Shown: piece by piece, positions 36,801 to 39,800 of the stretch
How positions within the stretch are numbered: position 1 is the stretch's first letter
Layout: the number at the start of each line of letters is the position of its first letter
Source: Escherichia coli
Lineage (GTDB): Bacteria; Pseudomonadota; Gammaproteobacteria; Enterobacterales; Enterobacteriaceae
Reading direction: 5' to 3' (one strand)
DNA: 64,000 nucleotides
Assembly: GCF_016026235.1 (NCBI RefSeq)
Contig: NZ_CP065613.1
Program-made: the position numbers

Positions 36801-39800
36801 CCTGTAGTGCCGCCAGCGCCGAGCAACACAATAACAGCATCAACCATATCTACCCACGCATCGCCCGTGTGCGTAGCGTGGAAGAGATCCTTCACGCGTT
36901 ATGATCTACATCGGTCTACCGCAATGGTCGCATCCTAAATGGGTGCGGTTGGGGATCACCAGCCTTGAAGAGTATGCCCGCCACTTTAACTGCGTGATAC
37001 GGGATTTTTAAAAATCACTAAAGAACGCCCAAGAGCATGTGTTTTCTTTAGAATAATCAAAGCGTTGGATTGCCATGTCATATGAAAATCGGCAAAGTTC
37101 ATATGTAACAAAGTGTCCCAATCATGCCCCAAAATGCCCCACAACAAATATTTTTGCCCCATGCATGCCCCAAAAAATCACTTTCCCTCACTCTTGACAC
37201 TGTTTATCCATACAGTTAAAAATAATACTGTATAAAAACACAGTGTAGAGGGATTTTTATGCGTATTGAAATCTGCATAGCCAAAGAGAAAATGACTAAA
37301 ATGCCAACCGGTGCTGTGGATGCGTTAAAGGAAGAATTAACCCGACGCATCAGTAAACGTTATGACGATGTAGAGGTGATCGTAAAAGCCACCAGCAACG
37401 ATGGCCTTTCTGTTACGCGCACCGCCGATAAAGATTCAGCTAAAACTTTTGTTCAGGAAACTCTGAAAGATACCTGGGAGTCTGCTGACGAGTGGTTTGT
37501 TCACTAATTAGCACGTAAAATCAGTAACGGCTGGAAATCATTCAATACTCGCACTATCGGAAGTTCACCAGCCAGCCGCAGCACGTTCTTGCATACGACG
37601 TGTCTGCGGTCTCAACTCCGCCCGCCCCCGCCAATCATGATTGGGCAGTACCAGTACAGCACTAGCAAAGACAGGAAATTAGCAGTCTCAGCAAAACACC
37701 GACCAGACGGTGAGAAGACAAAAAGATACGCAAAGATGCCGCGGTTCCAGAAGAATAAAAAACCGCTAATGGACAGCCTCCTTAACACAGTTTTTTATAT
37801 ACATGATTCACTGATACCAGTGGCATTAATAGCTATTATATAGCTTCAGCTCCTTTTTTCATACCTTAAGGAAAAATTGCCCCCTCCCCCAAAAAGTATC
37901 GTTTTTTTACATTAAACCGATCCAGTTTAGGATAGTGTAAAGCAGAAGTTCTTCAATATATAACATATGGAGTTAATATGCTTACACAAACTATATATCC
38001 GCCTCCTCCAGAAGTTCCTGTCTACTGCTGAAGGGAACCAATAACATTGCAAAGCAGATAAAAAAGAATCCAACACCTCTCAACATAAAGAATACGCCCT
38101 GATATTTATGCTCCCGACAAATAACAATCACAGATTAATTTCAAATTCGTTCTCCACTTATTCAATCGACACTAGCCGCGCATATGAAAATTATCTAACC
38201 CATTGGACTGAATGGAAAAATAACCGCATACAAGAAGAACAACGAGACATCGCTTTTCAGCGACTAGTATCATGTCTACAAAACCAAGAGACGAACCTGG
38301 ACTTGTCTGAATTAGGCCTGACAACATTACCTGAAATCCCCCCGGGAATTAAATCAATTAATATAAGTAAAAATAATTTAAGCTTAATCTCCCCATTGCC
38401 TGCGTCCCTTACACAGCTTAATGTCAGCTATAACAGACTTATTGAACTGCCTGCTTTGCCTCAAGGACTTAAATTATTGAATGCGTCCCACAATCAACTA
38501 ATCACACTACCCACACTCCCCATATCTTTGAAGGAGCTTCATGTCTCAAATAATCAATTATGTTCTCTTCCTGTTTTACCAGAACTACTGGAAACATTAG
38601 ATGTATCATGTAATGGGCTGGCAGTTTTACCACCTTTACCATTTTCTTTACAAGAGATTAGCGCAATAGGGAATCTTCTTAGTGAACTCCCCCCTCTACC
38701 TCACAACATTCACTCCATATGGGCAATCGACAATATGTTAACCGATATTCCATACCTGCCGGAAAATTTAAGGAACGGTTATTTTGACATAAATCAGATA
38801 AGTCATATCCCGGAAAGCATTCTTAATCTGAGGAATGAATGTTCAATAGATATTAGTGATAACCCATTGTCATCCCATGCTCTGCAATCCCTGCAAAGAT
38901 TAACCTCTTCGCCGGACTACCACGGCCCACGGATTTACTTCTCCATGAGTGACGGACAACAGAATACACTCCATCGCCCCCTGGCTGATGCCGTGACAGC
39001 ATGGTTCCCGGAAAACAAACAATCTGATGTATCACAGATATGGCATGCTTTTGAACATGAAGAGCACGCCAACACCTTTTCCGCGTTCCTTGACCGCCTT
39101 TCCGATACCGTCTCTGCACGCAATACCTCCGGATTCCGTGAACAGGTCGCTGCATGGCTGGAAAAACTCAGTGCCTCTGCGGAGCTTCGACAGCAGTCTT
39201 TCACTGTTGCTGCTGATGCCACTGAGAGCTGTGAGGACCGTGTCGCGCTCACATGGAACAATCTCCGGAAAACCCTCCTGGTCCATCAGGCATCTGAAGG
39301 CCTTTTCGATAATGATACCGGCGCTCTGCTCTCCCTGGGCAGGGAAATGTTCCGCCTCGAAATTCTGGAGGACATTGCCAGGGATAAAGTCAGAACTCTC
39401 CATTTTGTGGATGAGATAGAAGTCTACCTGGCCTTCCAGACCATGCTCGCAGAGAAACTTCAGCTCTCCACTGCCGTGAAGGAAATGCGTTTCTATGGCG
39501 TGTCGGGAGTGACAGCAAATGACCTCCGCACTGCCGAAGCCATGGTCAGAAGCCGTGAAGAGAATGAATTTACGGACTGGTTCTCCCTCTGGGGACCATG
39601 GCATGCTGTACTGAAGCGTACGGAAGCTGACCGCTGGGCGCTGGCAGAAGAGCAGAAATATGAGATGCTGGAGAATGAGTACCCTCAGAGGGTGGCTGAC
39701 CGGCTGAAAGCATCAGGTCTGAGCGGTGATGCGGATGCGGAGAGGGAAGCCGGTGCACAGGTGATGCGTGAGACTGAACAGCAGATTTACCGTCAGCTGA

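Follow-up and report, generated by a model that had tools for sequence, protein, structure and literature searches.

Five short direct repeats of the form TG(C/T)CCCA stand beside a prophage boundary in the E. coli gene yecE, and the question raised by this locus is which protein reads them. An earlier note on this DNA had proposed that they are arm-type binding sites of the phage integrase or, alternatively, that they bind a factor controlling the adjacent dinI-like promoter. We followed both proposals in the window, by which we mean the whole stretch of 64,000 nucleotides that was analysed, and in related phages and prophages.

A phased repeat cluster at the yecE junction

Homology to the intact E. 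coli yecE (the K-12 gene among the comparisons) stops at window position 36996. To the right, the dinI-like gene and an ipaH gene are followed by - strand genes for tail fibre, tail and head, reaching position 64000 (Table 1). In VT1-Sakai, the site corresponding to the LexA-type box of the window carries a LexA-box annotation. The junction is the tail-fibre-side end of a lambdoid prophage inserted in yecE and is equivalent to attR; the integrase end of the same prophage, including its cognate int gene, lies outside the window. Compared with E. coli FDAARGOS_943, which also carries a yecE prophage, the window junction is 100% identical. That the two are the very same prophage was rejected, as the window's far end matches FDAARGOS_943 piecewise and with shifted offsets.

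Three sequences delimit the point of insertion. The attB in K-12 yecE reads GCCCGCCACTTTAACTGCGTGGAGGG, the window junction ...CACTTTAACTGCGTGATACGG and the int-side junction of the FDAARGOS_943 prophage CCCGTCATGTTAACTGCGTGGAGGG. Their comparison gives an 11-bp common core, TTAACTGCGTG, which is identical in all three. The core-type sequence, CCCGyCAy-TTAACTGCGTG, is unrelated to TGYCCCA, and 36960-37113 contains no match to this motif with 1 mismatch or none.

Table 1. Annotated features around the prophage junction (positions in the window)
Feature	Position	Strand	Basis or remark
aspS	34256-36028	-	
yecD	36305-36904		followed by the first ~90 bp of yecE and then by the prophage
att common core TTAACTGCGTG, 11 bp	36986-36996	.	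predicted strand-exchange region; yecE to the left, phage P arm to the right
core-proximal block AAAATCACTAAAGAACGCCCAAGAGCA	37011-37037	+	kept in 7/9 attP regions with unrelated cores (MAFFT)
IHF consensus WATCAANNNNTTR, perfect match (AATCAAAGCGTTG)	37055-37067	+	consensus scan; between core and putative arm sites
tandem ~10-bp direct repeat TGAAAATCGG / CAAAGTTCAT	37083-37102	+	just core-proximal to the putative arm sites
putative arm-type site 1, TGTCCCA	37114-37120	+	first half of the canonical P-arm pair
putative arm-type site 2, TGCCCCA	37125-37131	+	second half of the canonical P-arm pair
putative arm-type site 3, TGCCCCA	37135-37141	+	extra site beside the pair; also in VT1-Sakai, phi330 and PPyecE
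putative arm-type site 4, TGCCCCA	37155-37161	+	first half of the second pair; TGTCCCA in P-EibC
putative arm-type site 5, TGCCCCA	37166-37172	+	second half of the second pair
dinI module start	37191-37243	+	context, outside the repeat element
dinI -35 hexamer TTGACA	37194-37199	+	promoter scan
LexA-type boxes CTGT-N8-ACAG	37200-37215 and 37228-37243	+	promoter scan
dinI-like gene	37259-37507		right of the junction
ipaH E3-ligase gene	38108-39859		

The repeats occupy the stretch 118-176 bp from the junction, in agreement with the first description, which had placed them about 120 bp inside the prophage boundary. Their start-to-start spacing, obtained both by direct reading and by a motif search, is 11, 10, 20 and 11 bp. 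This puts the five sites within ~1 bp of one helical face, and the helical phasing noticed earlier is thereby confirmed. Two details needed correction. Five copies of (A)TGCCCCA had been counted, whereas four are exact and the first is TGTCCCA, with the A preceding only sites 2, 3 and 5; and the cluster, given as 37114-37171, starts as described but ends at 37172. A repeat search also returned 21-nt units, 41 bp apart, consistent with a second pair that begins at site 4. No further TGYCCCA copy with up to 1 mismatch was present on either strand of 36960-37270. TGCCCCA as such is not over-represented in the whole window (13 occurrences against 11.3 expected). Chance clustering was nonetheless rejected, because TG[CT]CCCA has a background density of 1.25e-4 per base per strand, at which ~2.6e-9 clusters of five sites in 59 bp are expected per window by Poisson statistics.

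Matching pairs in the other arm and in related phages

The earlier note had suggested looking for the motif at the other prophage end and in the attP arms of related phages, and would have taken its absence from the other arm and from homologous phages as a refutation. At the opposite end a pair was indeed found in PhiR49_2, FDAARGOS_943, PPyecE_EH1910 and VT1-Sakai. PhiR49_2, whose record runs in prophage coordinates, is 97% identical to the window over 36995-37520 with all five sites identical, and its int-side arm carries ATGTCCCAATGATGCCCCA in the same orientation, 78-95 bp from the junction and within the last int codons. The FDAARGOS_943 yecE prophage has TGTCCCAATGATGTCCCA at the corresponding place. 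In PPyecE_EH1910 (inserted in yecE) and VT1-Sakai (in yehV), TGTCCCA-N4-TGCCCCA is found in the int end, and TGTCCCA-N4-TGCCCCA-N4-TGCCCCA lies ~130 bp inside the dinI end.

When the attP of the window phage is assembled as a composite, 210 bp separate site 1 from the first P' site, and in the MAFFT alignment site 1 falls on the first P-arm site of all relatives. As it lies at this distance from the P' pair, 37114/37125 reads as the canonical pair; 37135 reads as an extra site of the VT1-Sakai type and 37155/37166 as a second pair.

A tblastn search with the integrase returned 245 phage records. Ten records with a mid-record int region were inspected, of which nine contain a contiguous attP and the tenth, 683R6, is a prophage end. 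Results showed one pair per arm, around unrelated cores, in eight of the contiguous attPs, so that the motif recurs in related attP arms as well. These eight phages have integrases 36-79% identical and come from Klebsiella, Escherichia, Enterobacter, Aeromonas and Providencia, and their two pairs share the same orientation and are separated by 206-211 bp. Seven of them, RothC (Klebsiella), phi330, IdasGreatGrand, CobraSix (Enterobacter), 933W, AsXd-1 (Aeromonas) and PSTRCR_117lys (Providencia), with integrases 52-79% identical, have TGYCCCA-N4-TGCCCCA at the 3' end of int, with the second pair 206-211 bp downstream, the phi330 distance being taken after removal of a duplicated core. The first site at the int end is TGCCCCA in six of the seven and TGTCCCA in phi330, and 933W has three downstream pairs, arranged as a 31-bp tandem. 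The eighth, pAEv1818 (integrase 36% identical), has cGCCCCA-N4-TGCCCCA in each arm. The ninth contiguous attP, that of YP3, has the int-end pair only, within 600 bp, and the Rac-like 683R6 has TGCCCCC-N4-TGCCCCA after int. Every + strand TG[CT]CCCA in the 3.2-kb loci falls in an arm.

When the nine attP regions were aligned with MAFFT, the pairs stood out as near-invariant islands amid diverged sequence and unrelated cores; besides them, only the accessory blocks were near-invariant. In IMG/VR, a scan with a single integrase gave only 95-100% identical prophage fragments ending at the int stop. An alignment scan covered diverse loci, mostly prophage ends and thus scorable for the P' pair only, and ~60/77 distinct loci had a pair at the int 3' end. 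Among the IMG/VR loci a single one has a clearly contiguous attP, and its second pair stands 207 bp on. Altogether the TGYCCCA motif was found with yecE, yehV, wrbA and other cores.

In the stretch from the core to the repeats, the block at 37011-37037, with the family consensus AAAATCGAcAAAGATCGTCCArGAGC, is probably the site of an accessory protein. The IHF match at 37055-37067 is kept in PhiR49_2 and reads AATCAAACTCTTG in P-EibC, where changes affect N positions only, which makes it, as a consensus match, a candidate IHF bending site. An H'-like IHF match, AAAATCAnnnnGTTA, likewise a match to a consensus, is kept in the P' arm in the alignment. The block at 37083-37102 is semi-conserved in the alignment of the window with RothC, phi330 and AsXd-1, and relatives show CGAAnTTTnn twice; by analogy with lambda X1/X2, it is a candidate excisionase (Xis) site.

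The arm-binding domain of the integrase and the competing readings

The integrase (437 aa) consists of an Arm-DNA-bind_2 domain (PF12167, formerly DUF3596) at residues 7-70, with an E value of 2.4e-23, and a catalytic domain. The FDAARGOS_943 integrase is 98% identical to it and identical over the N-terminal 120 residues, and across ten relatives the N-terminal domain is the best-conserved region of the protein. In Smyshlyaev et al. 2021 (PMC8138268), the IntBPP-1 subgroup with a DUF3596/PF12167 arm-binding domain includes the putative integrases of BPP-1, of an Stx2a phage and of Gifsy-2.

An 11-bp spacing places the two P' sites in different reading frames of int: t|GCC|CCA encodes Ala-Pro and a|TG.CCC.CA encodes Met-Pro-His/Gln. 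The integrase tail is accordingly conserved as A/V-P-x-M/L-P-H/Q, and we attribute this conservation to the DNA sites embedded in int. Since the frames of the two P' sites differ and the phiCTX sites described below lie outside int, the repeats are kept as DNA and not as protein.

More distant integrases with the same domain show a similar arrangement with a different word. The phiCTX integrase is 30% identical, with PF12167 at an E value of 2.7e-20; its phage record AB008550 labels the attP region as having 'R1, R2 repeats', and we found GTTCCCA-N4-GTTCCCA(-N4-GTTCACT) on one side of the annotated attP core and GTTCCCA-N4-GTTCCCA on the other. In Pseudomonas phage MD8 the word is TGGTACA, paired at the int 3' end and again 195 bp downstream, and in Ralstonia phage Dina GCTGGCAAA repeats flank a tRNA-like core on both sides. 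A layout that is kept while its word changes is what would be expected of sites read by the N-terminal domain. A replacement repeat was also sought in loci whose integrases have divergent N-terminal domains (L105-L114), and none was found there.

With the motif present in the other arm and in homologous phages, and with an integrase that carries an arm-binding domain, the integrase proposal of the earlier note gains considerable support. We estimate a probability of about 0.85 that the five TG(C/T)CCCA repeats are the P-arm arm-type integrase sites of the attP of a lambdoid yecE phage, the binding itself being predicted from these sequence comparisons.

The excisionase (Xis/RDF) of the phage is another protein that might be expected on such an array, considering that lambda Xis sites are also tandem direct repeats on one helical face of the P arm and that an excisionase gene adjoins int in all relatives. 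An Xis reading, however, wants the motif in one arm only, the arrangement to which, to our knowledge, known RDF sites are confined, whereas here it stands in both arms, including the P' arm within int. Better candidates for Xis are offered by the conserved blocks nearer the core (37011-37037 and 37083-37102), and phiCTX shows the same layout, yet no Cox/Apl-type excisionase has been identified there (PMC3448106). It is thus very unlikely that the repeats are excisionase sites instead of integrase sites.

We see hardly any chance that a regulator of the neighbouring dinI-like SOS promoter uses the repeats as its operators. The dinI -35 hexamer follows 21 bp after the end of site 5, so that a bound protein could touch RNA polymerase. 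But the repeats follow the integrase and not dinI or the core. Phages with other integrases (mEp460 and others) have this dinI promoter with its LexA boxes but no repeats; their homology starts at 37191 and, in mEp460, the int stop codon adjoins the -35 hexamer. The repeats in turn accompany this integrase type beside unrelated genes in RothC, CobraSix, IdasGreatGrand and 933W, and they are also found inside int at the opposite prophage end. Module boundaries at 37191 therefore separate the repeats from dinI, which speaks against a dinI-promoter factor, the second proposal of the earlier note, as their primary role; bound integrase might still influence dinI in a secondary way. We give an equally slight chance to the P-arm copies being relics of int 3' ends duplicated by recombining prophages, with the motif kept by coding needs only. 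The P-arm unit TGTCCCAATCATGCCCCA is much like the int-end unit TGTCCCAATGATGCCCCA, but in most phages the flanks and the 4-bp spacers are not conserved between P and P' arms whereas the 7-mers and the distance of 206-211 bp are; moreover, the two coding copies occupy different frames, and both phiCTX pairs are non-coding. Replication iterons would be expected beside an origin or initiator gene and an AT-rich unwinding region; the repeats have yecE, dinI and ipaH for neighbours, and this reading was rejected. In the FDAARGOS_943 prophage, remnants of replication genes are found near the int end, opposite to the repeats.

Proposed function and relation to known systems

For the repeats as integrase arm-type sites, we propose the following mechanism. 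The sequence of the phage integrase identifies it as a heterobivalent tyrosine recombinase. Its N-terminal Arm-DNA-bind_2 domain would bind the 7-bp sites, which form tandem pairs with an 11-bp spacing on one helical face, and its C-terminal domains would bind and cut the core TTAACTGCGTG. The matching P' pair lies ~210 bp away in the int 3' end. IHF-type bends between arms and core would allow arm-bound integrase protomers to reach the core and to bridge partner sites; the perfect IHF consensus and the H'-like match of the P' arm, both of them consensus matches, fit a lambda-like bent intasome. An integrative complex would form on attP, leaving the P-arm repeats at the attR-type junction beside dinI after integration, and an excisive complex would form, together with the excisionase, on attL x attR. 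The extra sites at 37135 and 37155/37166 may perhaps differ in use between integration and excision, as for lambda P1/P2.

Lambda Int binds the arm-type sites P1, P2 and P'1-P'3 of its attP through its N-terminal domain. As in lambda, the sites described here are short, unlike the core and present in both arms, ~50-180 bp from the core; an N-terminal three-strand/helix domain, for which a fold match was found here, would be their reader; IHF-type sites, here candidates by consensus match, stand between arm and core; the 3' end of int adjoins the P' arm, and neighbouring sites are ~10-11 bp apart. The lambda arm motif is C/AAGTCACTAT, unlike the TGYCCCA motif, and we take the arm-binding domain of lambda to be PF09003, as opposed to PF12167 here. 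The P2 site of lambda is inverted whereas all sites here are direct repeats, and the P' pair lies within the int coding sequence in a basic set of 2 + 2, not 2 + 3.

In P2 and 186 the arm consensus varies by integrase group, tgTGGaCa in one case and tgccGCCActt in another (PMC3448106). These phages share the 2 + 2 tandem layout and the covariation of repeat and N-terminal domain with the system described here, but their repeat sequences differ, and the phages considered here are lambdoid with a separate Xis whereas the P2-like ones have Cox. The phiCTX Int, classed as P2-type (PMC3448106), is similar in its PF12167 domain and in having tandem repeats 11 bp apart on both sides of the attP core; it differs in its word (GTTCCCA, not TGYCCCA), in the distance between pairs (173 bp against ~209), in that both pairs are non-coding and in a core formed by a tRNA 3' end. 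The IntBPP-1 subgroup has the PF12167 domain in common, and the BPP-1 protein Bbp50 is a 28% identical match. The passages considered from the paper on this subgroup (PMC8138268) deal with protein classification and mention no arm sites; the DNA motif and its layout are added here.

Arm-type sites are a textbook class of element, and those described here are closest in layout to the sites of P2/186 and lambda. The arm-site sequence for this integrase family, including 933W, seems not to have been described before. A search of the open-access literature found no description of arm sites for the family, although subscription journals may contain one, and the literature matches for TGCCCCA together with integrase were phiC31 attP papers, which are irrelevant here. 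It is unlikely, in our estimate, that the TGYCCCA pairs represent an undescribed and unusually rigid 2 + 2 intasome layout of the 933W/Rac-type PF12167 (IntBPP-1) branch, which includes many Shiga-toxin phages. The features of such a layout may be an 11-bp spacing within pairs, a distance of 206-211 bp between the arms and a P' pair in two int frames, and the use of two frames may force the conserved A-P-x-M-P-H/Q tail.

On the same unlikely reading, the extra sites near the dinI -35 hexamer might add a further connection. Bound integrase might modulate the SOS-controlled dinI promoter, or transcription from this promoter might disturb the excisive complex; if such an interplay were true, excision would be coupled to the SOS response. 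In addition, our results provide a testable arm-site consensus, namely TGYCCCA pairs 11 bp apart, one per arm, with ~209 bp between them, for an integrase family found in many prophages that are Stx-converting or carry effectors, such as 933W, VT1-Sakai and the yecE phages. This signature could sharpen the prediction of prophage ends and attP sites, it could tell whether a degraded prophage end, for example the ipaH-carrying one of the window, is still competent for excision, and the consensus could guide the engineering of these integrases.

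Elements between the core and the arm sites

We looked at the prophage end on the dinI side and at its counterparts in related phages, and the features located are collected in the table. The block next to the core carries ATCGnC twice, 10 bp apart, and recurs about 20-50 bp past each core in the int/attP loci of the relatives L092-L098; overall, it is kept in 7 of the 9 attP regions despite their differing cores. This block may be a site for an accessory protein or an outer Int site. Farther from the core, the match to the IHF consensus is also retained in the related phage P-EibC, where the differences are confined to N positions.

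The tandem repeat beside the arm-site pair has counterparts in RothC (CGAAATTTGG/CGAAATTTAC) and in AsXd-1 (CGAACTTTAA/CGAACTTCAC), and in the window it is overlapped by the inverted repeat I12, CATATGAA/TTCATATG. As lambda has its Xis sites at the matching position, we consider this repeat a candidate excisionase site by analogy.

Features of the prophage ends and of the region near dinI
Feature	Coordinates	Location
Core-adjacent block AAAATCGAcAAAGATCGTCCArGAGC	window 37011-37037	P-arm side of the core
Perfect IHF consensus match, AATCAAAGCGTTG	window 37055-37067	between the core and the arm sites
Tandem repeat of about 10 bp	window 37083-37102	on the core side of the arm-site pair, directly beside it
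Intact ipaH-type E3 ubiquitin ligase effector gene (583 aa)	window 38108-39859	between dinI and the tail-fibre genes
Inverted repeat GGTCACCAAAGTGACAC	L001 (PhiR49_2 int end) 60-76; L010 (FDAARGOS_943 prophage) 28609-28625	inside the int 3' end, directly core-proximal to the P' pair

Arm sites within int and among relatives

The P' arm sites fall within the final int codons in two different reading frames (L001 78-95; about 2215-2275 in L092-L099), thus giving a conserved integrase C-terminal peptide, A/V-P-x-M/L-P-H/Q. Comparison of the int ends showed that the neighbouring inverted repeat is conserved in neither PPyecE nor VT1-Sakai.

The P arm itself varies. Most relatives have one TGCCCCA pair, whereas the P arm of phage 933W / EDL933-Stx (L096 2462-2541) has three, in a 31-bp tandem repeat, TGCCCCAATAGTGCCCCAAACAACCACATTT. 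The IMG/VR loci L105-L114 form a related-integrase subgroup with a divergent N-domain (GIELHGGNLRIAFMWRRIRCRESLG...), and up to 450 bp downstream of int they contain neither TGYCCCA nor an obvious substitute repeat. In the record of vB_EcoS_phi330 (L093 2325-2365), two copies of the 20-bp yehV core stand in tandem (cctgtcacgttacgcgcgtg repeated), which looks like an artefact of joining the prophage ends and not a true attP.

Cargo and the related yecE prophage of FDAARGOS_943

In the matching locus of E. coli FDAARGOS_943, the effector gene near dinI carries the annotation ipaHd. The gene adjoining dinI in PPyecE_EH1910 is nleC, which encodes a T3SS effector.

The FDAARGOS_943 yecE prophage (L010 28576-36354) has int and xis intact, and its early region is interrupted by IS600, IS2 and ISEc60 insertions. 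At its far end, the window matches the FDAARGOS_943 genome only piecewise and with shifted offsets, so the two prophages are related mosaics and distinct elements, not the same one.
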